Shown here piece after piece: positions 6,268-52,348 of a DNA stretch of 64,000 bases; the first letter of the stretch is position 1; each line of letters starts with the position of its first letter. The position numbers and the translations under genes are program-made. Source of the DNA: Betaproteobacteria bacterium (GTDB lineage: Bacteria; Pseudomonadota; Gammaproteobacteria; Burkholderiales; SG8-41); assembly GCA_016192825.1 (NCBI GenBank), contig JACPTK010000004.1:2905-66904 (forward strand), given 5' to 3'. Below the pieces are notes generated by a model that was not told the origin of the DNA, did not search any database, and worked only from the letters and a program-made list of their open reading frames with translations.

Positions 6268-6379
6268 GGATGAGGGATGAGGGATGAGGGATGAGGGATG
6301 AGGGATGAGGGATGAGGGATGCGGGATGAGGGATGAGGGATGCGGGATGAGGGATGAGGGATGAGGGATGAGGGATGAC
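6268..6379 (+). repeat. Tandem heptamer array (GGATGAG) x16
   Basis: Counted directly: 16 contiguous 7-nt units. Units 8 and 11 are GGATGCG and the last unit is GGATGAC. The array starts 10 nt after the purL stop. Confidence 0.97.
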
Positions 6380-6390
6380 CCCCTCCAGCA

Positions 6391-6425
6391 GAAACGGCGC
6401 ACCCAGGTGCGCCGTTTCTTATTTG
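6391..6425 (+). terminator. Rho-independent terminator of purL
   Basis: 12-bp perfect stem GAAACGGCGCAC / GTGCGCCGTTTC with a 4-nt loop, followed by a T-rich tail (CTTATTTG). Confidence 0.7.
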
Positions 6426-6466
6426 TGACGCGTCACCAGTCACGAGTCACCAGTCACCAGTCACGC
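6425..6466. repeat. Tandem heptamer array GTCACCA/GTCACGA (5 units) preceded by palindromic GTGACGC
   Basis: Units are GTCACCA, GTCACGA, GTCACCA, GTCACCA, GTCACGC at 6432-6466. The array abuts the stop codon of the minus-strand PPIase gene. Confidence 0.92.
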
Positions 6467-7248
6467 TACTCAATTTTGGCCTTGGCGCGCAGCCCGGCGA
6501 GGGCCTTGTCATAGGCCAGCTTCCGCTGAAATTGCTGCATCTGCTGCTGCAGATTGGGCTTGACCTGCTCGTACGGCGGGAGCTGCTGCGCACGCACGTC
6601 GTCGAGCCGGATGATGTGCCAGCCGAAGTTGCTCTGGACCGGCGCTTCCGTCATCTGCCCTTTCTTGAGCCGGGTCAGCGCGTCGCCGAAAGGCTTGACG
6701 TACCGGAGAGCGAGGCTCCAGTCGAGCTCGCCGTTGCGCCCTTTGCTGCCGGCGTCCTTCGACTTCTCGCCGGCGAGTTTCTCGAAGCTGGCGCCGTTCC
6801 GGATCTGGGCAATGATCTCCTTTGCCTCGTCCTCGCTCTCCACGAGAATGTGGTGCGCCTTGTATTCCTGCTGTCCCTTTGCGCGCTCGTATTCCTTCTT
6901 CATGTCGTCTTCGCTGACCGGCGCGGGCCGGACCATTTCACCCAGATAGGCGCGCACCAGGACGCTTTGCCGCGCCAGATCGATCTGCGTCGCGACCTCC
7001 GGCTTCTTGTGCAGCCCCCGGCGCGTGGCTTCCTGGGCCAGCAATTCGTAGTCGATGAGCTCCTGCCGGACCGCGTTCCTGAGATCGGGCGAATCGGCGC
7101 GGCCCTGCGACGTGAGGTTGCGTATGAAAAGGTCCATGCGCAACTGCGGGATGGTGACGCCGTTGACCCTGGCAACGCCATTTTGAGCGTGCGCCGGGGA
7201 TGCCGCGAGCAGCCCGGCAAGCACGAGCGAAAATGCGAATGACTTCAT
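6466..7248 (-). CDS. Periplasmic peptidyl-prolyl cis-trans isomerase, parvulin (PpiC) type
   Basis: 260 aa with a signal peptide (MKSFAFSLVLAGLLAASPAHA) and a parvulin core (YKAHHILVESEDEAKEI.., GELDW.., FGWHIIRLDD). Confidence 0.85.
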   Translation of the reverse strand: MKSFAFSLVLAGLLAASPAHAQNGVARVNGVTIPQLRMDLFIRNLTSQGRADSPDLRNAVRQELIDYELLAQEATRRGLHKKPEVATQIDLARQSVLVRAYLGEMVRPAPVSEDDMKKEYERAKGQQEYKAHHILVESEDEAKEIIAQIRNGASFEKLAGEKSKDAGSKGRNGELDWSLALRYVKPFGDALTRLKKGQMTEAPVQSNFGWHIIRLDDVRAQQLPPYEQVKPNLQQQMQQFQRKLAYDKALAGLRAKAKIE

Positions 7249-26254: not shown

Positions 26255-27235
26255 TTAGGCGAAGGCGAGCGTCTTCTTCACCGCCGCCACGATCTGCGCC
26301 TTGCCCGGCTGGTAGTGATGCTCCAGGCGCGGCAGCGGCACCACCACGTCATAACCGGTCACCCGCTGCACCGGGGCGAGCAGGTTGAGCAGGGCCTCTT
26401 CCGCCAGTCGCGCGGCAATCTCCGAGGCAAAGCTGCAGGTGCGGGGCGCTTCCGTGGCCACGATGCAGCGGCCGGTCTTGGCGACGGAGCCCAGTATCGT
26501 CTCCATGTCGAGCGGCTTGAGAGTTGCAACGTCGATCACCTCGGCGGCGACGCCCTGCTCGGCGAGCTCGTCCGCGGCGGCGAGCGCTTCCGGAATCATG
26601 CCGCCCCAGCCGACGAGCGTCACGTCGGAGCCCTCGCGCAGCGTGAAGCAGGCATCGAGCGCCATCGCTTCGCCGCTGTCGGCGACCTCTTCCTTGAACA
26701 GGCGGTAGAGCCGCGTCGGCTCGAGAAAAACAACCGGGTCGGGGTCGCGGATCGCGGCGAGCAGCAGGCCATAGGCGCGGCGGGGCGAGGAGGGGTACAC
26801 CACGCGGATGCCCGGGATATGGGCGTACATCGCTTCGGGACTTTCCGAGTGGTGCTCGGGCGCGTGAATGCCGGCGCCGCACGGCATTCTCAGCACCATC
26901 GGGCAGGAGAGCCGGCCCTGGGTGCGATGGCGCATGCGCCCGGCGTGGTTGAGGATCTGGTCGATCGTGGTGTAGGCGAAGCCGGAGAACTGGATTTCGG
27001 CCACCGGCTTCAAGCCCTCCACCGACATGCCGATTGCCATGCCGGCGATCAGCGCTTCGGCAAGCGGGGTGTCGATCACGCGCTCGGGCCCGAAGCGCTC
27101 GGTGAGCCCCAGCGTCGCGCGGAATACGCCGCCGTCCACGCCGACATCCTCGCCCAGGACGACCACGCCGGGGTCGCGCTCCATCTCGCCCTTCAGCGCG
27201 AGGTTGATGGCTTCAACGAGGGTGATTTGCGCCAT
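26255..27235 (-). CDS. 2-oxoacid dehydrogenase E1 component beta subunit
   Basis: 326 aa with typical transketolase-like E1beta blocks (VVVLGEDVG..GGVFR, RVIDTPLAE, PCGAGIHAPEHHS). Confidence 0.92.
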   Translation of the reverse strand: MAQITLVEAINLALKGEMERDPGVVVLGEDVGVDGGVFRATLGLTERFGPERVIDTPLAEALIAGMAIGMSVEGLKPVAEIQFSGFAYTTIDQILNHAGRMRHRTQGRLSCPMVLRMPCGAGIHAPEHHSESPEAMYAHIPGIRVVYPSSPRRAYGLLLAAIRDPDPVVFLEPTRLYRLFKEEVADSGEAMALDACFTLREGSDVTLVGWGGMIPEALAAADELAEQGVAAEVIDVATLKPLDMETILGSVAKTGRCIVATEAPRTCSFASEIAARLAEEALLNLLAPVQRVTGYDVVVPLPRLEHHYQPGKAQIVAAVKKTLAFA

Positions 27236-27244
27236 CTGCGATCA

Positions 27245-27275
27245 GGTAATGGGTAATGGGTAATGAGTAATGAGC
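27245..27275 (+). repeat. Heptamer array GGTAATG x3, AGTAATG, AGCATCA (left arm of an inverted pair)
   Basis: Read directly. The reverse-complement array lies at 27663-27690. Confidence 0.92.
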
Positions 27276-27287
27276 ATCAAAACCCGG

Positions 27288-27665
27288 TTAGGACCGGACT
27301 GCCTTGTGAAGCCCCGTTACCAATCTGGAGACTTGATTTACAACATTGAAAATTGGATCGTTGCTATTGATGTAGCCCAGATCACTGGCGATAAGCAACT
27401 GTGTCTCCAGTTCGCTCAGCGAGCCTCGTGCCACGTTCAAGAACTGAGCGAACTCCCTGTTTCCTGTGCGCGCGGCACCCTCTGCAATATTGCTGGGAAT
27501 TGAGACTGCGGCGCGACGCATCTGCGAGACCAATCCAAACATCTCTTCCCTGGGAAATTTCTGTGTTAGTAAATAGACGTCCTTGACCAAAGCTCTGGAT
27601 ACCTTCCAGGCCTCCAGCTTGTGGTGGCCCCTTCCAGCACTTTCTGGTTGTCGTTCAGCGCCCAT
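27288..27665 (-). CDS. Four-helix-bundle protein (23S rRNA intervening-sequence protein / S23p family, Avd-like)
   Basis: About 125 aa. Family signature: ..KLEAWK..L....Y.LT..FP..E.FGL.SQMRRAAVSIPSNIAEG..R....EF.QFL..A.GSL.ELETQL. G+C is visibly lower than in the neighbouring genes. The gene is bracketed by inverted heptamer arrays. Confidence 0.9.
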   Translation of the reverse strand: MGAERQPESAGRGHHKLEAWKVSRALVKDVYLLTQKFPREEMFGLVSQMRRAAVSIPSNIAEGAARTGNREFAQFLNVARGSLSELETQLLIASDLGYINSNDPIFNVVNQVSRLVTGLHKAVRS

Positions 27666-27690
27666 CACTCATTACCCATTACTCATTACC
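27663..27690 (+). repeat. Heptamer array CATCACT, CATTACC, CATTACT, CATTACC (right arm, reverse complement of GGTAATG)
   Basis: Read directly. It contains the start of the four-helix-bundle gene and the last codons plus the stop of E1alpha. Confidence 0.92.
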
Positions 27691-28743
27691 CAGTGCAGCG
27701 GCCCGCTGGCGCGCGAGTGCTGCGGGCAACTGCGCGTAGAGATGGTCGAACATCTGCGCTGCGGCCGGAGGCGGCGTGTCGAGGTAGGCCTGCGCCGCGG
27801 CCTGCACCTGCGCGTTGCATTCCCTGAGCAGCGCGTCCTCCTTCGACTTGTCCCAGGCGCCGGATTCCATGAGGTGGGCGCGCAGCCGCACAAGGGGCTC
27901 GAGCTTCCATGCTTCCGCCAACTCGTCCGGGCTGCGGTAGCGCGAGGCGTCGTCGGCCGTGGTGTGGTCGGCGAGCCGGTAGGCAAGGGCCTCGATCAGC
28001 GTGGGGCCGCCGCCGGCGCGGGCTTTCGCGAGCGCCTGCTCCATGGCGTGGCGCACGGCGATGACATCGTTGCCGTCCACCTGCAGGCCTTCGATGCCGG
28101 CGGCGATGGCCTTCTGGGCGAGCGTGTGCGCCGCGGTCTGCTTCGCCCGCGGCACCGAGATCGCCCACTGATTGTTGGCGACGACGAAGACGAGGGGCAG
28201 CTTCCAGACGCCGGCGGCATTGAGACCCTCGTAGAAATCGCCCTTGGAGGTTGCGCCGTCGCCCAGCGCGCACACCGCCACGCGCGGCTCCCGCCGCAGC
28301 TTCATGGCGTAGGCGACTCCGACCGCGTGTGTTGCGTGCGCGGCGATGGTGATGCAAACAGGGAAGTCCCGGCGAGGGCCGGCATAATCGCTTCCGCGTT
28401 CGTCCCCGCCCCAATAGAGAAACAGCTCCTTGAGCGTCACGCCGCGCATCAGCTGCGCGCCGTTCTCGCGGTAGGTCACGAGCAGGACATCGTCCCTCGC
28501 CATCGCGGAACCGACCCCGGCTTCGATCGCCTCGTTGCCGAGCATCGAGGCGAAAGTACCGAGCTGTCCGGTGCGCTGCAGCGCGATCGCCTTGGCGTCA
28601 TAGGCGCGCATCAGCGCCATCCAGCGGTAGAGGGAGACGAGTATCCGGGGATCATGCGCGAAGCCCGGCAGGGCCTGCAGCGCCTTGCCGTGGGGATCGA
28701 GGAACTGTAAGTACCGGACCTCGAATTTGGCGGTGATATTCAA
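27679..28743 (-). CDS. 2-oxoacid dehydrogenase E1 component alpha subunit (TPP-dependent)
   Basis: 354 aa with a TPP motif region (GDGATSKGDFYEGLNAAGVWKLPLVFVVANNQWAIS). The C-terminal ..GNE-stop is encoded by the heptamer array. Confidence 0.9.
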   Translation of the reverse strand: MNITAKFEVRYLQFLDPHGKALQALPGFAHDPRILVSLYRWMALMRAYDAKAIALQRTGQLGTFASMLGNEAIEAGVGSAMARDDVLLVTYRENGAQLMRGVTLKELFLYWGGDERGSDYAGPRRDFPVCITIAAHATHAVGVAYAMKLRREPRVAVCALGDGATSKGDFYEGLNAAGVWKLPLVFVVANNQWAISVPRAKQTAAHTLAQKAIAAGIEGLQVDGNDVIAVRHAMEQALAKARAGGGPTLIEALAYRLADHTTADDASRYRSPDELAEAWKLEPLVRLRAHLMESGAWDKSKEDALLRECNAQVQAAAQAYLDTPPPAAAQMFDHLYAQLPAALARQRAAALGNE

Positions 28744-28891: not shown

Positions 28892-29995
28892 ATGAATCTC
28901 GGTTTCTTCACGATGCCGATGCACCCGCCGGGGCGAAACTATACGCAGACGCTCCGGGAGGATCGCGAGGCGGTGCTGCTGGCGGACCGTCTGGGATATT
29001 GCGAGGCCTTCATCGGCGAGCACATCACCGATGTGTGCGAGACCATCCCGTCGTGCCTGACGTTTATCGCGAGCGTCGCCCACGACACCCGGCAGATCCG
29101 GCTCGGCAGCGGCACCGTCAACCTGCCCAACAACCACCCGGTCCAGGTGGCCGCGCACGTTGCGATGGTGGATCACATGCTGGAGGGGCGTTTCATTTTC
29201 GGCATCGGACCGGGCGGGCTGCGCTCCGACATGGAGGTGTGCGGAAACCTGGACGCCGATCGCAACGCGATGTTCGTCGAATGCATCGACCAGATCCTCG
29301 CGATCTGGGCGGGCGATGCGCCGTACAACCTGAAGGGACGCTACTGGAACATCTCCACCGAGCGCACGCTCATCCGCGAGGCGGGACAGGGCGTGATCCT
29401 GAAGCCGTTCCAGAAGCCGCATCCCCCCATCGTGGTGACCGTCATCGCACCGCACTCGAAGGGGCTGGTCGCGGCGGCGCAGCGCGGCTGGCGACCGATT
29501 TCCGCCAATTTCCTGCAACCCCGTTGGGCGGCGACGCACTGGCCCATGTATCGGCAGGGTCGCGAGCTTGCCGGTCAACGCGCCGATCCACGGGATTGGC
29601 GCGTTTGCAAGAGCATCTTCGTGGCCGACGACGACGTCGCCGCGCGCCGTTACGCTACAAGCGCGGACGGGCCGTACGGATTCTATTACTGGAACCTGCT
29701 GACCAAGCGCAGGGGCCATGGCAACGTGGACATCTTCAAGCACGATCTGGGCGTTCCGGACGCCGCGGTGACCGTGGACTACCTGCTCGACCGGCTGGTG
29801 ATCTGCGGCGGCGTCGCGAGCGTGGTGGACCAGCTGCTCGCGTTCCGCGAAACGGTGGGGGATTTCGGCACGCTGCTCTACTGCGGCCACGACTGGGCCG
29901 ATCCGAAGCTCGCGCGCCGCTCGATGGAGCTGATGGCGGAGAAGGTGATGCCCGCAGTCAACGCGGCGCTTGGCCCTGCGTCATGCGCCGCTTGA
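28892..29995 (+). CDS. Luciferase-like (LLM class) flavin-dependent monooxygenase
   Basis: About 367 aa from ATG 28892 (MNLGFFTMPMHPPGR..). It shows an LLM pattern (IGEH.., LGSGTVNLPNNHP). The track ORF starts earlier, at 28766. Confidence 0.82.
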   Translation: MNLGFFTMPMHPPGRNYTQTLREDREAVLLADRLGYCEAFIGEHITDVCETIPSCLTFIASVAHDTRQIRLGSGTVNLPNNHPVQVAAHVAMVDHMLEGRFIFGIGPGGLRSDMEVCGNLDADRNAMFVECIDQILAIWAGDAPYNLKGRYWNISTERTLIREAGQGVILKPFQKPHPPIVVTVIAPHSKGLVAAAQRGWRPISANFLQPRWAATHWPMYRQGRELAGQRADPRDWRVCKSIFVADDDVAARRYATSADGPYGFYYWNLLTKRRGHGNVDIFKHDLGVPDAAVTVDYLLDRLVICGGVASVVDQLLAFRETVGDFGTLLYCGHDWADPKLARRSMELMAEKVMPAVNAALGPASCAA

Positions 29996-30023
29996 GTGAT
30001 GAGAGATGAGTGACGGGTGACGG
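29993..30023 (+). repeat. Short heptamer array TGAGTGA, TGAGAGA, TGAGTGA, CGGGTGA
   Basis: Four units; the first TGA is the LLM gene stop codon. There is no clear inverted partner. Confidence 0.6.
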
Positions 30024-33359: not shown

Positions 33360-33414
33360 TCACCAGTCACGAGTCACGAGTCACGAGTCACGAGTCACGA
33401 GTCACGAGTCACGA
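33360..33414. repeat. Tandem heptamer array: TCACCA + (GTCACGA) x7 perfect
   Basis: Counted directly: seven identical units at 33366-33414, between the prpD stop and the thioredoxin-fold gene start. Confidence 0.97.
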
Positions 33415-33420
33415 GCAGTA

Positions 33421-34863: not shown

Positions 34864-34884
34864 GTGCCTCGAAACGCGCGGCTA

Positions 34885-34956
34885 GCGGATCGCGACTCGC
34901 GGATGGTGACAGCTTGCTTGATTGGCCCGGTCACGAGCCGCGATCCGCGAGTCACT
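34885..34956. repeat. Inverted pair of GC-rich heptamer arrays (GCGGATC GCGACTC GCGGATG GTGACAG ... GGTCACG AGCCGCG ATCCGCG AGTCACT)
   Basis: Left arm 34885-34912 and right arm 34929-34956. GACTCGCGGAT pairs with ATCCGCGAGTC. The right arm overlaps the prpC stop. Confidence 0.75.
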
Positions 34957-36124: not shown

Positions 36125-36166
36125 GTCACCAGTCACCAGTCACCAGTCACGAGTCACGAGTCACGG
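36125..36166. repeat. Tandem heptamer array (GTCACCA) x3 (GTCACGA) x2 GTCACGG
   Basis: Six contiguous units between the mdh stop and the prpC start. Confidence 0.96.
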
Positions 36167-39899: not shown

Positions 39900-39901
39900 C
39901 G

Positions 39902-40008
39902 GTGAATCGTGATTGGTGATTAGTGAGCGGACCAAACCGAAGAGCGACGCATGATGGACTTCCGTCTTCCCGCTTGTCACCAATCACTAAACACCACTCA
40001 CTAATCAC
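39902..40008. repeat. Inverted pair of heptamer arrays in the sdhA|sdhB spacer (GTGAATC GTGATTG GTGATTA GTGAGCG ... TTGTCAC CAATCAC TAAACAC CACTCAC TAATCAC)
   Basis: Left arm 39902-39929 and right arm 39974-40008. There is a 12-nt perfect complement: GTGATTAGTGAG (39916-39927) with CTCACTAATCAC (39997-40008). Confidence 0.9.
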
Positions 40009-41188: not shown

Positions 41189-42487
41189 ATGGCAGAGAAA
41201 CTGGCAACCCTGAGCTTCAGTGACGGCACGCCGTCGGTCGATTTCCCCGTGCTGGGCGGCAGCGAAGGCCCGGAAGTGATCGACGTGCGGGCACTCTACG
41301 GCAAGACCGGCAAGTTCACCTACGACCCCGGCTTCATGTCCACGGCCAGCTGCCGCTCCACCATCACCTATATCGACGGCGACAAGGGGATACTGCAATA
41401 CCGCGGCTACCCGATCGAGCAGATCGCCGAGCATTGCACGTTCCTCGAGGTGGCCTACCTGATCCTCAACGGCGAGCTGCCGAACAAGAAGCAGCTCGAG
41501 GAATTCGTGACTACCGTCACCCACCACACCATGGTGCACGAGCAGCTCGGGCGCTTTTACTCGGGTTTCCGGCGCGACGCGCACCCGATGGCGGTGCTGT
41601 GCGGGGTGGTGGGCGCCCTGTCCGCCTTCTACCACGACTCGATCGATATTCACGACGAGCGCAGCCGGGAGATCGCGGCGTTCCGGCTGATCGCGAAGCT
41701 GCCGACCATCACGGCGATGACCTACAAATACAGCGCCGGACAGCCGTTCATGTACCCGAAGAACGCGCTGTCCTACGTGGACAACTTCCTCTACATGATG
41801 TTCGGCACGCCGTGCGAGGAGTACAAGCCCAACCGGACCCTGTCGCGGGCGATGGACCGCATCCTGATCCTTCACGCCGACCACGAGCAGAACGCGTCGA
41901 CCTCCACGGTGCGGCTCGCCGGCTCGACCGGCGCCAACCCGTTCGCGTGCATCTCCGCCGGCATCGCGAGCCTGTGGGGCCCGGCCCACGGCGGCGCCAA
42001 CGAGGCGGTGCTCAAGATGCTCGGCGAAATCGGCGACGTGAAGAACATTCCCGCGTTCATCAAGCGCGTCAAGGACAAGGACGGCCACGCCATGCTGATG
42101 GGCTTCGGCCACCGCGTCTACAAGAACTACGACCCGCGCGCCAAGCTCATCCAGAAGACCTGCCACGAGGTGCTGGAGGAGCTCGACCTCAAGGACGACA
42201 AGCTGTTCAAGCTCGCGATCGCGCTGGAGAAGGTGGCGCTCGAGGACGAGTACTTCGTCAAGCGCAAGCTCTATCCCAACGTGGATTTCTATTCCGGCAT
42301 CGTCTACAAGGCGCTCGGCATTCCGGTCGCGATGTTCACCGCGATATTCGCGCTCGCCCGCACGGTGGGTTGGATCGCCCAGTGGAAGGAGCTGATCAGC
42401 GACCCGGATCAGAAGATCGGGCGCCCGCGGCAGCTCTTCACGGGCGCGGCGCGCCGCGACTTCGTGCCCATGAACAAGCGAAAGTGA
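41189..42487 (+). CDS. gltA: Citrate synthase (type II, hexameric type)
   Basis: 432 aa from ATG 41189 ([13 protein letters not shown]..). Motifs: [30 protein letters not shown]. The track ORF starts earlier, at 41063. Confidence 0.95.
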
Positions 42488-42571
42488 TTCGTGAGTCGTG
42501 AATCGTGATTCGAGGGCGTATCGTGTGCGGACCATAGCGGGCCGAATCACGAATCACCCATCACGATTCAC
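42484..42571. repeat. Inverted pair of heptamer arrays in the gltA|sucA spacer (GTGATTC GTGAGTC GTGAATC GTGATTC ... GAATCAC GAATCAC CCATCAC GATTCAC)
   Basis: Left arm 42484-42511, whose first unit contains the gltA TGA. Right arm 42544-42571. The centre is 32 nt. Confidence 0.92.
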
Positions 42572-42596
42572 GCTCTTGGGTTTCTGAGGCGCAGCC

Positions 42597-45449
42597 ATGA
42601 TGAAGCAGATGCTCGGCAGCTCCCATCTCTTCGGCGCGAACGCGCCGTTCATCGAGGCGCTCTACGACGCCTGGCTCAGGGACCCGGCCTCGGTCGAGCC
42701 GCGCTGGCGCGATTACTTCGAGGAATTGCAGCGTCTCGACCAGGGCGCCGCGGATGTGTCGCACTACGAGGTCCAGGAGCGCTTCGCGCAGCTCGCCCGG
42801 GCGCCGCGCGCGGGCGCGCCGACGGTCGTGATCAACCGCCCGCAGCTCGGCGAGAAGCAATACGCCGTGCTCCATCTCATCACGGCCCATCGCATCCTGG
42901 GCAGCCGCCACGCCGACATCGATCCCCTCCGGCGCCGCGAAAAGCCGGACATTCCCGAGCTCGACCCCGCATTCTACGGGCTGAGCGATGCAGACATGGA
43001 GGCGGCGTTCAACACCGGGACGCTGGTCGGGCCGCGGGAGATGAAGCTCAGCGACATCCTGCAGTTCCTCAAGGACACCTATTGCCGCAGCGTCGGCGTC
43101 GAATACATGCACGTCACCGACATGGCGCAGAAGCGATGGGTGCAGGAGCGTCTGGAGCGCACCCGCTCGACGCCTTCCTACGACGCCGAGTACCGCAAGC
43201 ACATCCTGGAGCGGCTGACCGCCGCCGAGACGCTGGAAAAATACCTGCACACCAAATACGTCGGCCAGAAGCGCTTCTCGCTGGAGGGCGGCGAGTCCCT
43301 GATTCCGCAGCTCGACCACCTGCTGCAGAGCGCGGGGAAAGCGGGCGTGCAGGAACTGGTGATCGGCATGGCCCACCGCGGCCGCATCAACGTCCTCGTC
43401 AATACCCTGGGCAAGATGCCCAAGGATCTTTTCGCGGAGTTCGAAGGCAAGCACGATGACTCGCTGCTTGCCGGCGACGTCAAGTACCACCAGGGCTTCT
43501 CCGCCAACATCATGTCGCCGGGCGGGCCGATGCACGTCTCCCTGGCGTTCAACCCCTCGCACCTCGAGATCGTCAACCCGGTGGTCGAGGGCTCGGTGCG
43601 CGCGCGCCAGCACCGCCGGCGGGATCTAAGGGGCGACCAGGTCCTGCCGGTGCTCATCCACGGCGATGCCGCGTTCGCGGGGCAAGGCGTGAACATGGAA
43701 ACCTTCGAGCTGGCGCAGACGCGCGGCTACGGCACCAGCGGCACGCTGCACCTGGTGGTGAACAACCAGATCGGCTTCACCTGCTCCGACCTGCGCGACG
43801 CCCGCTCGACGCTCTACTGCACCGACATCGCCAAGATGCTCGAAGTGCCGATCTTTCACGTGAACGCCGACGATCCGGAAGCGGTGTGCCTGGTGACGGA
43901 GATCGCGCTGGAATACCGCATGAAGTTCCACAAGGACGTGGTGGTGGACCTGGTGTGCTACCGGCGCCTCGGGCACAACGAGCAGGACGAGCCGATGGTC
44001 ACCCAGCCGCTGATGTACAAGACCATCGCCCGGCTCCCCACCACGCGCAAGCTGTACGCCGACAGGCTCGAGCGCGAAGGCGCGATCCAGCCGGGCGGGG
44101 GCGACGCCATGGTCGTGAACTTCCGCGCCGCGCTCGATGGCGGGCACCACACCAACAAGACCATCCTGTCCAACTACAAGCCCCCGTTCGAGGTCGACTG
44201 GGGCAAGTACCGGGGCGGCAAGTGGAACGAGCACGACGACACGCGGCTCCCGATCGAGACGCTGAAGCGGCTGGGGGAGCGCATCACCACCGTGCCCGAG
44301 AACTTCAAGCTGCATTCCTCGGTGCAGCGGATCATCGAGAACCGGCGCCTGATGGCGCAGGGCAAGCTCCCGCTCGACTGGGGCATGGCCGAGCATCTGG
44401 CCTTCGCCACGCTGCTCGAGGAGGGCTACTCGGTCCGGCTCTCGGGCCAGGACAGCGGGCGCGGAACCTTCTTTCACCGCCATGCCGTGCTGCACGACCA
44501 GAACCGGGAGAAATGGGACCAGGGCACCTACGTTCCGCTGCAGCACCTGAGCGACAAGCAGGGCGATTTCGTGGTGATCGATTCGGTGCTGTCCGAGGAG
44601 GCCGTGATGGGCTTCGAGTTCGGCTACTCGACCTCGGCGCCCAACGAGCTGGTGATCTGGGAAGGACAATTCGGCGATTTCGCGAACGGCGCCCAGGTGG
44701 TCATCGACCAGTTCATCGCCTCGGGCGAGGCCAAGTGGGGCCGGCTGTGCGGGCTGGTGCTGATGCTGCCCCACGGCTACGAGGGGCAGGGGCCGGAGCA
44801 CTCGTCCGCCCGCATCGAGCGCTACATGCAGTTGTGCGCCGACTACAACATGCAGGTCTGCGTCCCGGCAACCCCGGTGCAGCTCTATTACCTGCTGCGG
44901 CGGCAGATGATCCGGCCGTACCGCAAGCCGCTCATCCTGTTCACGCCGAAGAGCCTGCTGCGCCACAAGGAATCGGTCTCGCCGCTGGAGGAATTCGCCA
45001 CCGACAAGTTCAAGCCGGTGAACGAGGACTGGGAATCCAAGGACATCAATCCCGACGCAGTGAAGCGCGTCGTCTTCTGCAGCGGCAAGGTCTATTACGA
45101 TCTGCGCGTCGAACGCAAGGCGCGCGGCCTGAAGGACCTGCCGCTCGCGCGCATCGCGCAGCTCTACCCGTTCGCGCACGACGACTTCCATGCGCAGATC
45201 GAGCGCTACAAAACGGCGAGCGAGATCGTGTGGTGCCAGGAGGAGCCGCGCAACCAGGGCGCGTGGCACCGCATCCAGCACTACCTGGAGCGCCACCTGC
45301 TGCCGCACCAGAAACTGATCTACGCCGGCCGCGACTCCTCGGCCGCGCCGGCCGCGGGGTACAAGTCGCTGCACGACCGTCAGCAGAAGGAGCTCGTGGA
45401 TCTTGCGCTGTCCGTGGGTGTCGTCTCGCGCGCCGACGGGGTGCGGTGA
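42597..45449 (+). CDS. sucA: 2-oxoglutarate dehydrogenase E1 component
   Basis: 950 aa with characteristic blocks (RILGSRHADIDPL, GMAHRGRINVL, HGDAAFAGQGV, LPHGYEGQGPEHSSAR). Confidence 0.97.
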   Translation: MMKQMLGSSHLFGANAPFIEALYDAWLRDPASVEPRWRDYFEELQRLDQGAADVSHYEVQERFAQLARAPRAGAPTVVINRPQLGEKQYAVLHLITAHRILGSRHADIDPLRRREKPDIPELDPAFYGLSDADMEAAFNTGTLVGPREMKLSDILQFLKDTYCRSVGVEYMHVTDMAQKRWVQERLERTRSTPSYDAEYRKHILERLTAAETLEKYLHTKYVGQKRFSLEGGESLIPQLDHLLQSAGKAGVQELVIGMAHRGRINVLVNTLGKMPKDLFAEFEGKHDDSLLAGDVKYHQGFSANIMSPGGPMHVSLAFNPSHLEIVNPVVEGSVRARQHRRRDLRGDQVLPVLIHGDAAFAGQGVNMETFELAQTRGYGTSGTLHLVVNNQIGFTCSDLRDARSTLYCTDIAKMLEVPIFHVNADDPEAVCLVTEIALEYRMKFHKDVVVDLVCYRRLGHNEQDEPMVTQPLMYKTIARLPTTRKLYADRLEREGAIQPGGGDAMVVNFRAALDGGHHTNKTILSNYKPPFEVDWGKYRGGKWNEHDDTRLPIETLKRLGERITTVPENFKLHSSVQRIIENRRLMAQGKLPLDWGMAEHLAFATLLEEGYSVRLSGQDSGRGTFFHRHAVLHDQNREKWDQGTYVPLQHLSDKQGDFVVIDSVLSEEAVMGFEFGYSTSAPNELVIWEGQFGDFANGAQVVIDQFIASGEAKWGRLCGLVLMLPHGYEGQGPEHSSARIERYMQLCADYNMQVCVPATPVQLYYLLRRQMIRPYRKPLILFTPKSLLRHKESVSPLEEFATDKFKPVNEDWESKDINPDAVKRVVFCSGKVYYDLRVERKARGLKDLPLARIAQLYPFAHDDFHAQIERYKTASEIVWCQEEPRNQGAWHRIQHYLERHLLPHQKLIYAGRDSSAAPAAGYKSLHDRQQKELVDLALSVGVVSRADGVR

Positions 45450-46893: not shown

Positions 46894-46978
46894 GTGAATG
46901 GTGAGTGGTGAGTGGTGAATGGCAGAAACGGCCGGTTTCCGGGTTCAGCCCAATCACTACTCACCAATCACTATTCAC
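46894..46978. repeat. Inverted pair of heptamer arrays in the sucB|lpdA spacer (GTGAATG GTGAGTG GTGAGTG GTGAATG ... CAATCAC TACTCAC CAATCAC TATTCAC)
   Basis: Left arm 46894-46921 and right arm 46951-46978. The centre is 29 nt and contains a small GAAAC..GTTTC stem. Confidence 0.92.
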
Positions 46979-50867: not shown

Positions 50868-50950
50868 CAGCTTCCAGCTTCCAGCAACCAGCAGTCAGCC
50901 GAAACCGCAAACTGGAAGCTCTAAGCTGGCAGCTCGTAGCTGATAGCTGC
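50868..50950. repeat. Inverted pair of heptamer arrays with unit CAGCTTC (CAGCTTC x2, CAGCAAC, CAGCAGT, CAGCCGA ... GGAAGCT CTAAGCT GGCAGCT CGTAGCT GATAGCT)
   Basis: Left arm 50868-50902 and right arm 50914-50948, between convergent genes. Confidence 0.85.
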
Positions 50951-52063: not shown

Positions 52064-52101
52064 TAGCAGCCTGTCGGAGTTGAAGTTCCGACAGGCTGCT
52101 A
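52064..52101. repeat. REP-like hairpin TAGCAGCCTGTCGG-N10-CCGACAGGCTGCTA
   Basis: 14-bp perfect stem. Confidence 0.8.
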
Positions 52102-52308
52102 AAGGCGAAGCGGCTCATTCCGCCGTCGACCGGCGTCACGGTGCCGGTAATATACCGCCTCCCGCGCGAGCCCCTCGAGCAGGTTGACGCGCCGCGCGGC
52201 GACGGCGGGCTTCACGCCTCCGCGCGCGAGGCCCAGCGCGATAGCGCGCCCGATGCCGCGCGAGGCGCCGGTGGCGAGGGCGGCGCGGGATTCAAGTTGA
52301 AGGTCCAT
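52099..52308 (-). pseudogene. Short-chain dehydrogenase/reductase remnant with a large internal deletion
   Basis: The N-terminus MDLQLESRAALATGASRGIGRAIALGLARGG.. (about 50 aa) is joined out of frame directly to an SDR C-terminal motif YITGTVTPVDGGM. The catalytic core is missing. Confidence 0.6.
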
Positions 52309-52320
52309 ATGTTGAAAGGC

Positions 52321-52348
52321 GTGACTGGTGACTGGTGATTGGTGGATT
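52321..52348 (+). repeat. Heptamer array GTGACTG x2, GTGATTG, GTGGATT
   Basis: Four units. It is the reverse-orientation, phase-shifted relative of the GTCACCA arrays. Confidence 0.8.

Follow-up and report, generated by a model that had tools for sequence, protein, structure and literature searches.

Three-frame stop codons in intergenic heptanucleotide arrays of a betaproteobacterial genome: a probable by-product of G-rich heptads

Between the genes for citrate synthase (gltA) and 2-oxoglutarate dehydrogenase E1 (sucA), a 64,000-nucleotide stretch of a Betaproteobacteria genome (contig JACPTK010000004.1; the whole stretch is called the window below) carries a tandem array of seven-base units whose TGA triplets fall in all three reading frames, the first of them being the stop codon of gltA. 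An earlier interpretation made from the letters of the window (the sequence-only reading) had noticed comparable arrays beside other genes and proposed that they act as frame-independent translational insulators. The question raised by this locus is whether arrays of period 7 are built to stop ribosomes in every frame. According to a census of the genome and to orthologous junctions from other species of the genus, the three-frame stop is probably an arithmetical by-product of G-rich heptads with a GTGA core, which have an inward polarity of their own, and not the function around which the arrays are organised.

The gltA-sucA site and a census of period-7 arrays

The site comprises two facing arrays in the spacer between the two genes, with the following parts:

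41189-42487, plus strand: gltA (citrate synthase), whose product ends in ...KRK*
42484-42512, plus strand: left arm, (GTGAnTC)x4.1, with TGA in the three plus-strand frames; the TGA at 42485-42487 is the gltA stop codon
42513-42542, no strand: non-repeat spacer (loop) separating the left and right arms
42543-42572, minus strand: right arm, (GTGAnnn)x4.3, 24 nt before the sucA start codon (42597)
42597-45449, plus strand: sucA (2-oxoglutarate dehydrogenase E1), downstream of gltA

Read directly, positions 42484-42511 of the plus strand are GTGATTC GTGAGTC GTGAATC GTGATTC, and the TGA triplets at 42485-87, 42492-94, 42499-501 and 42506-08 occupy frames 2, 0, 1 and 2, exactly as the sequence-only reading had it. 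Because 7 is coprime with 3, at least three GTGA units place stops in all frames of the strand that runs from a gene boundary into the spacer (the inward strand), at the end or at the start of a gene alike. The right arm, GAATCAC GAATCAC CCATCAC GATTCAC, is an imperfect reverse complement of the left one and has TGA in the three minus-strand frames, so that at this site stops are present on both strands, as the sequence-only reading states for inverted pairs; these right-arm stops are antisense to both gltA and sucA.

Folding of the 125-nt gltA-sucA spacer as RNA gives an extended stem (dG -52 kcal/mol, z -3.6 versus shuffles). The pair may act in the transcript as an intercistronic stem, in the manner of repetitive extragenic palindromic (REP) elements or of rRNA intervening sequences, and such a stem could serve, for example, as a substrate for double-strand RNases or as a barrier to 3' exonucleases. 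A Rho-independent terminator was considered and rejected, as no terminator-like site or T-run is present in 42300-42700 and the pair lies between co-directional genes. No promoter-like site was found at the pair, and curated RNA families (Rfam 15, gathering score) gave no match across the whole window.

Arrays were sought in the 5.1-Mb draft genome containing the window with Tandem Repeats Finder (TRF; score of at least 30). Period 7 yielded 1,513 arrays, far more than period 6 (353) or period 8 (437), and the numbers within non-coding DNA are 1,244 for period 7, 24 for period 6 and 256 for period 8. The genome has about one array per 3.5 genes. An earlier, stricter detector (mismatch -3, score of at least 14) had returned only 487 arrays and 35 pairs, had missed the array at 42484-42511 and was replaced by TRF; the results from that strict set go in the same direction. 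The statistics on orientation and units refer to the 1,156 intergenic arrays with two called neighbours, and stop triplets were scored on both strands in the consensus unit of each intergenic array.

Four is the most frequent copy number (440 of the 1,156 arrays; median 4.1). This preference for four units and not three gives no sign of a design for three frames, and it is a first point against arrays selected as insulators. An inverted partner (score of at least 15 of 21) shares the spacer with about half of the arrays, compared with 8% in the direct-repeat control. As many as 258 distinct unit types were recorded, the commonest being GTGACTC, GTGATTC, GTGATTG, GGATGAG and GTGAGTG; GGG is absent from the dominant units GTGACTC, GTGATTC, GTGATTG and GTGAGTG and occurs only in those of the GGGATGA type (about 48 arrays). 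Single-linkage clustering of the units at Hamming distance 1 put nearly all of them in one cluster and gave no count of independent families. Array density is 0.71 per kb between divergent genes and 1.5-1.7 per kb elsewhere, and 339 of the 1,156 arrays have no stop triplet on either strand. Separately, 253 period-7 arrays lie mostly inside called genes, and 183 of these have no stop triplet on either strand.

Polarity and composition of the arrays

The sequence-only reading held that the stop-bearing strand faces the end of the adjacent gene, and this is seen throughout the genome: of the arrays near gene 3' ends, 344 bear their stops on the sense strand of the gene and 91 on the antisense strand (258 and 36, respectively, within 30 nt of the 3' end of confident genes). 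The same polarity is found near gene starts, where the stop-bearing strand is inward, and hence antisense to the gene, in 270 arrays against 84 (3' versus 5', Fisher p=0.35), or 168 against 31 within 30 nt of the start of confident genes. With respect to gene direction, orientation is random among the unpaired arrays between same-strand genes, which carry their stops on the sense strand in 123 cases and on the antisense strand in 111, an outcome at odds with the insulator proposal. When these are divided by the nearest boundary, those near the end of the upstream gene have sense stops in 99 cases and antisense stops in 31, and those near the start of the downstream gene have antisense stops in 80 and sense stops in 24. 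The non-random property is the orientation to the nearest boundary, and it applies equally at starts, where no ribosome enters. Moreover, stop-bearing arrays are not enriched at ends versus starts, as inward arrays outnumber stopless ones by 1.71 to 1 at 3' ends and by 1.96 to 1 at 5' ends.

Inward polarity is also present in other species of the genus, with 10:0 at 3' ends and 13:1 at 5' ends in 60 loci (229 kb). An artefact of the calling of open reading frames (ORFs) was considered as its source and rejected, the polarity being kept with confident genes both at 30 nt or less and at 20 nt or less. The automatic counts understate the polarity, because two arrays of the window (27661-27692 and 52321-52344) were classified as outward and are inward on inspection.

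Start-side arrays could be reconciled with a selected function if insulation operated at the level of the whole element: the arms of a hairpin or cassette would stop ribosomes coming from either side, and those next to a start would be the other half of a symmetric design. The inverted pairs of the strict set, with an inward polarity of 16:1, and the depletion of arrays between divergent genes are in keeping with such an insulator; the unpaired start-adjacent arrays, with their 80:24 excess of antisense stops, and the lack of enrichment at ends are not. Real three-frame sense stops, as at 42484-42511, are provided by only 271 of the 648 end-adjacent arrays (42%) and are absent from the others, and three-frame stops are found on the antisense strand, which is not the relevant one for translation, in 223 of the 508 start-adjacent arrays (44%). 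Among confident genes with a downstream spacer of at least 45 nt, 1,743 of 2,270 (77%) have no array there, and at such array-free ends three-frame stops occur within 45 nt in only 3.7% of cases (2.2% on the antisense strand). The genome thus gives no indication that stops in other frames are selectively required behind genes at large, and this counts against an insulator.

Regarding the natural stop codons, the sequence-only reading had placed them within or overlapping the array in several cases, including gltA and the genes for E1alpha and for an LLM oxidoreductase; an array lies at or over the stop at all three. Among the 344 arrays genome-wide that adjoin a gene end and have an inward stop, 34% overlap that end, and the natural stop is in register with the stop phase of the array in 135 of 285 cases (47% versus 14% expected), as would suit an insulator that supplies the stop itself.

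The composition of the units gives another account of the polarity. Stops and G-richness coincide on one strand in 642 of 654 informative arrays, and the inward strand has more G than C in 747 arrays versus 229. Arrays devoid of stops also have the G-rich strand inward (204:91), and the same applies to the stopless members of pairs (84:26), a polarity that insulation does not explain. Since stopless arrays keep the G-rich strand inward, polarity exists without stops, and the inward strand bears the stops because a strand rich in G, T and A is the one able to hold TGA.

When stops are counted per array against the exact permutation expectation, inward stops are present in 642 arrays versus 434 expected (z=15), an excess that taken by itself would favour the insulator, and outward stops in 203 versus 255, a slight depletion. 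This excess belongs entirely to the GTGA-core family. GTGA is carried inward by 444 arrays and outward by 77, and in the other 635 arrays the observed and permuted numbers of stops are 185 and 188 for the inward strand and 100 and 110 for the outward strand. At the level of unit types, an inward stop is present in 76 of 258, versus 65 expected (z=1.9). The composition-matched shuffle, which the sequence-only reading had put forward as a check, thus yields no stop enrichment beyond composition, either outside the GTGA family or among unit types, contrary to what selection for insulation would lead one to expect.

TGA makes up 85% of the stops in arrays, compared with 59% of gene stops. Within arrays, the T, G and A of this triplet show 3-5% mismatch and are no better kept than positions 5 and 7, while positions 4 and 6 vary at 10-14%, with the same profile at gene ends and starts. 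Seen from the heptad, the first and third bases after TGA are hypervariable and the other five positions are fixed in every context. These values argue for a heptad skeleton, G-TGA-n-T-n, as the conserved object rather than the stop triplet.

A skeleton with five fixed positions and two free ones, the same at both kinds of gene boundary, is also what would be expected of binding-site arrays in which each heptad holds one protein and GTGA is the putative recognition core of a protein that binds single-stranded or duplex nucleic acid. Candidate binders would include cold-shock or S1-type OB-fold proteins, CsrA (for GGA-containing units) and a four-helix-bundle protein, whose genes co-occur with the arrays (see below). 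The preference for four units is consistent with this idea, and similar candidates have been proposed for TAACTGA repeats (MacGregor 2015, PMC4679880). Nevertheless, 258 unit types in one genome are hard to fit with a single sequence-specific binder, and this explanation is regarded as very improbable.

According to the by-product reading, which is preferred here, arrays would sit flush against a gene boundary with the G-rich strand running 5' to 3' from the boundary into the spacer. A facing pair, such as the one at 42484-42572, would supply the two arms of a long, imperfectly paired hairpin and would sometimes enclose a four-helix-bundle gene, and single arrays would represent half-elements. 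The three-frame stop is a physical fact that makes such arrays tolerable on gene ends: as a secondary effect, an array can lie against a natural stop, take it in or stand in for it, and no long read-through follows. Of the translational insulator first proposed, the physical part stands, namely that stops are met in any frame and that arrays overlap and recode gene ends, whereas the functional part is largely contradicted by the orientation relative to gene direction and by the composition null, both of which the sequence-only reading had itself named as grounds for refutation, and by the polarity of stopless arrays and the lack of enrichment at ends.

Several observations weigh against the by-product reading. 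Polarity is somewhat stronger in stop-bearing than in stopless arrays (about 3.9:1 versus 2.2:1). The GTGA family is the most successful one, with its 444 inward arrays, and this success could itself stem from TGA, as motif and stop are inseparable by permutation tests. Between divergent genes, arrays are twofold depleted and have their weakest polarity (57:30), both of which point to some link with gene 3' ends. The genes were called by a codon-usage model of our own, which made 80.7% of the genome coding and missed some genes, and the role of the hairpin at the RNA level is conjectural. Finally, an insulator working at the level of the element would look no different from a mobile element of symmetric build whose two sides both have outward-facing stops. 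A related proposal is that GTGA units won because the three-frame stop lets hairpins and cassettes colonise operon stop-start junctions from either side without giving rise to fusion proteins, with the start-side arms as passengers; this is thought improbable, and the selected element-level insulator is likewise considered an unlikely explanation.

Orthologous junctions, cassettes and other arrays of the window

The sequence-only reading had also suggested comparing the position of gene stops and arrays among orthologues. At gltA and at the LLM gene the stop has not moved and the array lies on it; at E1alpha the picture differs, the tail of the gene having been replaced by the array in several congeners. 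The end of gltA falls at the same codon (...KRK*) in 15 of 15 congeners, whether or not an array is present, with TGA, TAG or TAA as the stop. The shortest gltA-sucA spacer among the congeners (L002-L015) measures 4 nt (TGAccctATG) and the longest about 190 nt. No array is present there in at least four congeneric species, and others have different units or periods, including nnnGTGA, GTGTTKA and 14-mers. Across these spacers, hairpin arms are made of units of period 7, 9, 10, 14 or 16, or are absent, next to a fixed gltA stop. For the LLM gene, too, the stop position is unchanged, and the array begins exactly on it.

The ancestral junction of E1alpha and E1beta is a stop-start overlap, TAATGG or TGATGG. 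In several congeners, arrays replaced the last 2-6 codons of E1alpha and provide its stop, a contribution that an insulator would also make. In congener L073 the native junction GATGAGTGATGG has grown on the spot into (GTGATGR)x4; the natural stop keeps the register of the array, and the last unit contains the ATG of E1beta. The ancestral overlap, compared across the junctions of L073, L058, L061 and L068, already contains two tandem heptads (GTGATGA GTGATGG), and, judged by the sequence, the expansion from two to four units in L073 looks like the visible birth of an array from native sequence. In other relatives (L059, L060 and L043), a family of 9-mers (ACAGGATTA and variants) forms inverted-arm elements right after the stops of E1alpha and of the LLM gene, and these elements extend E1alpha by KQE.

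Some arrays may have been seeded from a stop-containing junction itself. In its general form, this explanation holds that arrays grow in situ by heptad-specific slippage from proto-repeats at a stop or a stop-start overlap (for example, the native GGTGATGAGTGATGG), that their stops are inherited and not selected, and that the arm near the start is a later, inverted copy. Apart from the L073 junction, it is consistent with the GGTAATG/AGTAATG unit of the genome studied here, which matches the native ...GGTAATGAGTAATGG junction, with the unchanged stops of gltA and the LLM gene on which arrays exactly begin, with the locus-specific nature of the 258 unit types and with the presence of different units or no array in the same spacer of different congeners. 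The 47% of natural stops in register also fit; this signal is partly forced, as an array overlapping the end of an ORF necessarily supplies its stop. Growth from stops leaves unexplained the unpaired antisense arrays near starts (80:24), the G-rich polarity of stopless arrays and the arrays located 10 nt or more from any stop, and it does not predict a share of TGA higher in arrays than among gene stops (85% versus 59%). As an explanation of the arrays at large it is considered improbable.

Further evidence on polarity comes from cassettes in which two arms flank a gene, represented in the window by the following features:

27245-27272, plus strand: (GGTAATG)x4, 9 nt upstream of the E1beta start codon (gene at 26255-27235, minus strand); left arm of the four-helix-bundle cassette
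27288-27668, minus strand: four-helix-bundle gene of low GC content (TIGR02436, E 2e-34), enclosed as cargo by two GGTAATG-type arms
27661-27692, minus strand: (TAATGGG/TAATGAG)x4.6, overlapping the final codons of E1alpha (27679-28743, minus strand) together with its TAA stop

All seven four-helix-bundle genes of the genome (7/7) are located between inverted heptamer arrays. The cassettes are those at 27245-27692 of the window and on contigs C60, C86, C90, C79, C99 and C56, and they have units of their own (GGTAATG, CGTGACT, AGGATTG, GATAAGG, AGTTTCG and GTAGCTC). In five of the seven, stops face readers arriving from outside on both sides, as an insulating element would require; one is reversed and one is stopless. 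The polarity of the arms is independent of the strand of the cargo gene, and the arm that follows the cargo gene's own stop has the wrong polarity for the cargo. Polarity belongs to the element rather than to neighbouring translation. With regard to the statement that GGTAATG follows E1alpha, an array does follow this gene; since E1alpha is on the minus strand, the array in question is the right-hand one, 27661-27692.

The other arrays of the window are:

6268-6378, plus strand: (GGATGAG)x16, 9 nt past the purL stop; unpaired
6432-6464, minus strand: (TGGTGAC/TCGTGAC)x4.7, 1 nt past the stop of the PPIase gene (6466-7248, minus strand); unpaired
29993-30013, plus strand: (TGAGTGA)x3, starting exactly on the natural stop of the LLM oxidoreductase gene (28892-29995)
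33360-33415, minus strand: (CTCGTGA)x8, 5 nt past the prpD stop; unpaired
34877-34956, no strand: GC-rich inverted pair GCGGATC/GCGACTC between prpC and prpD; units without stop triplet
36125-36164, minus strand: (TGGTGAC/TCGTGAC)x5.7, 8 nt past the mdh stop; unpaired
39901-40008: inverted pair of GGTGATT x3.7 (39901-39926) and TCACCAA x4.6 (39977-40008), the second arm 18 nt before the start of the downstream gene; the genes around it are presumably sdhA and sdhB
46894-46978: inverted pair of GTGAATG x4.1 (46894-46922) and AATCACT x3.9 (46952-46978), the second arm 11 nt before the start of the downstream gene; the genes around it are taken to be sucB and lpd
50868-50942: CAGCTTC / GAAGCTG-type inverted pair between convergent genes; left arm without stop triplet
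52321-52344, plus strand: (GTGACTG)x3.4, 11 nt upstream of the start codon (ATG 52310) of a minus-strand SDR-like gene fragment; its stops face the gene start

Five arrays of the window face a gene start (27245-27272, 39977-40008, 42543-42572, 46952-46978 and 52321-52344). Most of the flanking genes named in the sequence-only reading were matched by NCBIfam models, namely purL on the plus strand, PPIase and E1alpha on the minus strand, LLM on the plus strand and prpD, prpC and mdh on the minus strand, as was E1beta on the minus strand. Its description of the GCGGATC/GCGACTC units as lacking stop triplets is correct, and that of the CAGCTTC pair holds for the left arm. Beyond the (GGATGAG)x16 array of purL lies a terminator-like hairpin with a T-tail, at about 6392-6424; the segment between the purL and PPIase arrays (6379-6431), with its hairpin and T-tail GAAACGGCGCACC CAGG GGTGCGCCGTTTC TTATTT, resembles an ordinary bidirectional terminator. 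The purL and PPIase arrays are not mutually complementary. On the minus strand, 52099-52310 encodes the N-terminal part of an SDR-type dehydrogenase (MDLQLESRAALATGASRGIGRAIA...), probably a gene fragment, which was skipped by the gene caller. With respect to annotation, caution is advised on two counts: some genes have C-terminal tails that an array defines or has recoded, and open frames traverse the C-rich strand of arrays upstream of starts.

Relationship to known repeats

Among known intergenic elements, the REP sequences and bacterial interspersed mosaic elements (BIMEs) of enterobacteria and pseudomonads are abundant hairpins, often intercistronic or located just past stops, and are thought to affect mRNA stability. 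In REPs, a single conserved sequence is used throughout a genome, and mobilisation is by RAYT transposases. The arrays described here are likewise abundant intergenic hairpins; an identity with REPs or REPINs was rejected, as 258 heptad units and locus-specific arms stand here against one conserved palindrome (the presence of a RAYT was not searched for).

An excess of seven-base repeats in bacteria has been in the literature since at least 2009 (PMC2700814; earlier surveys are summed up in MacGregor 2015, PMC4679880) and is still unexplained. The present genome is an extreme case, in which the rules can be measured with good statistics, and the analysis removes a purpose-built three-frame stop as the explanation. 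Any mechanism must account for a G-rich strand that always leads from the boundary into the spacer, whether a gene starts or ends there, for a preference for four units and for five fixed and two free positions, as well as for units that are locus-specific and turn over between congeners while the position of the gene stop is fixed.

The G-rich heptamer repeats of Xanthomonas (GGGAATC) and Nostoc PCC 7120 (GGGGAYT) are on the sense strand where they lie up to 50 bp from stops, which they often overlap, and on the antisense strand where they lie up to 50 bp from starts (Rehm et al. 2015, PMC4692102). Those of Xanthomonas are mostly found between aligned or convergent ORFs and are depleted between divergent ones, with 70-75 convergent inverted pairs per genome, and sister species carry repeats at other genes; the units of both have tracts of three or four G, form quadruplexes in vitro and are preferentially arranged in fours (PMC4692102). 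The arrays studied here share with both the period of 7, the four-unit preference, the excess in non-coding DNA and the placement in sense near stops and antisense near starts, and share with those of Xanthomonas the depletion between divergent genes, the frequent inverted pairs and the loci not shared between related species. They differ in the dominant unit, GTGAnTn, which has no G-tract and has a TGA in every unit, and in the much greater diversity of their 258 unit types, and they reach a density of about 1,244 intergenic arrays in 5.1 Mb. Read from the units, GGGAATC and GGGGAYT have no stop triplet on either strand, nor has the GGGACCG of Geobacter, and the like placement of the stopless Xanthomonas and Nostoc families is a further argument against insulation.

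Within marine Beggiatoaceae, some cyanobacteria and Bacteroidetes, TAACTGA direct repeats are intergenic and have 2-6 units; forward repeats bring stops in all three frames and are hence found at ORF ends, which was noted as a mere consequence (PMC4679880). They have a single conserved unit, mostly forward and directly preceding the start codon of the following gene, with only one inverted pair among them (PMC4679880). The arrays reported here resemble them as intergenic heptamer arrays with three-frame stops, some lying over the upstream stop. Unlike them, start-adjacent arrays are antisense here and about half of the arrays belong to inverted pairs, and the 60 most frequent unit types, out of 258, do not include TAACTGA.

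Finally, in the part of the Geobacter metallireducens report drawn on here, 49 copies of elements with four GGGACCG heptads are described, together with paired tandem-repeat sites, TCTCCGTS[Y] and MTYCTGA, of 3-5 units on opposite strands at variable distance, all of them annotated, putatively, as RNA elements or as sites bound by regulators, and a preference for four units is reported (Aklujkar et al. 2009, PMC2700814). Both genomes thus have dispersed multicopy elements of four heptads in tandem, and paired sites on opposite strands; GGGACCG differs in lacking a stop triplet, and that part of the report contains no analysis of polarity at gene ends. By these comparisons, the arrays of the present genome are a new and very dense member of a known and unexplained class of bacterial heptanucleotide repeats.

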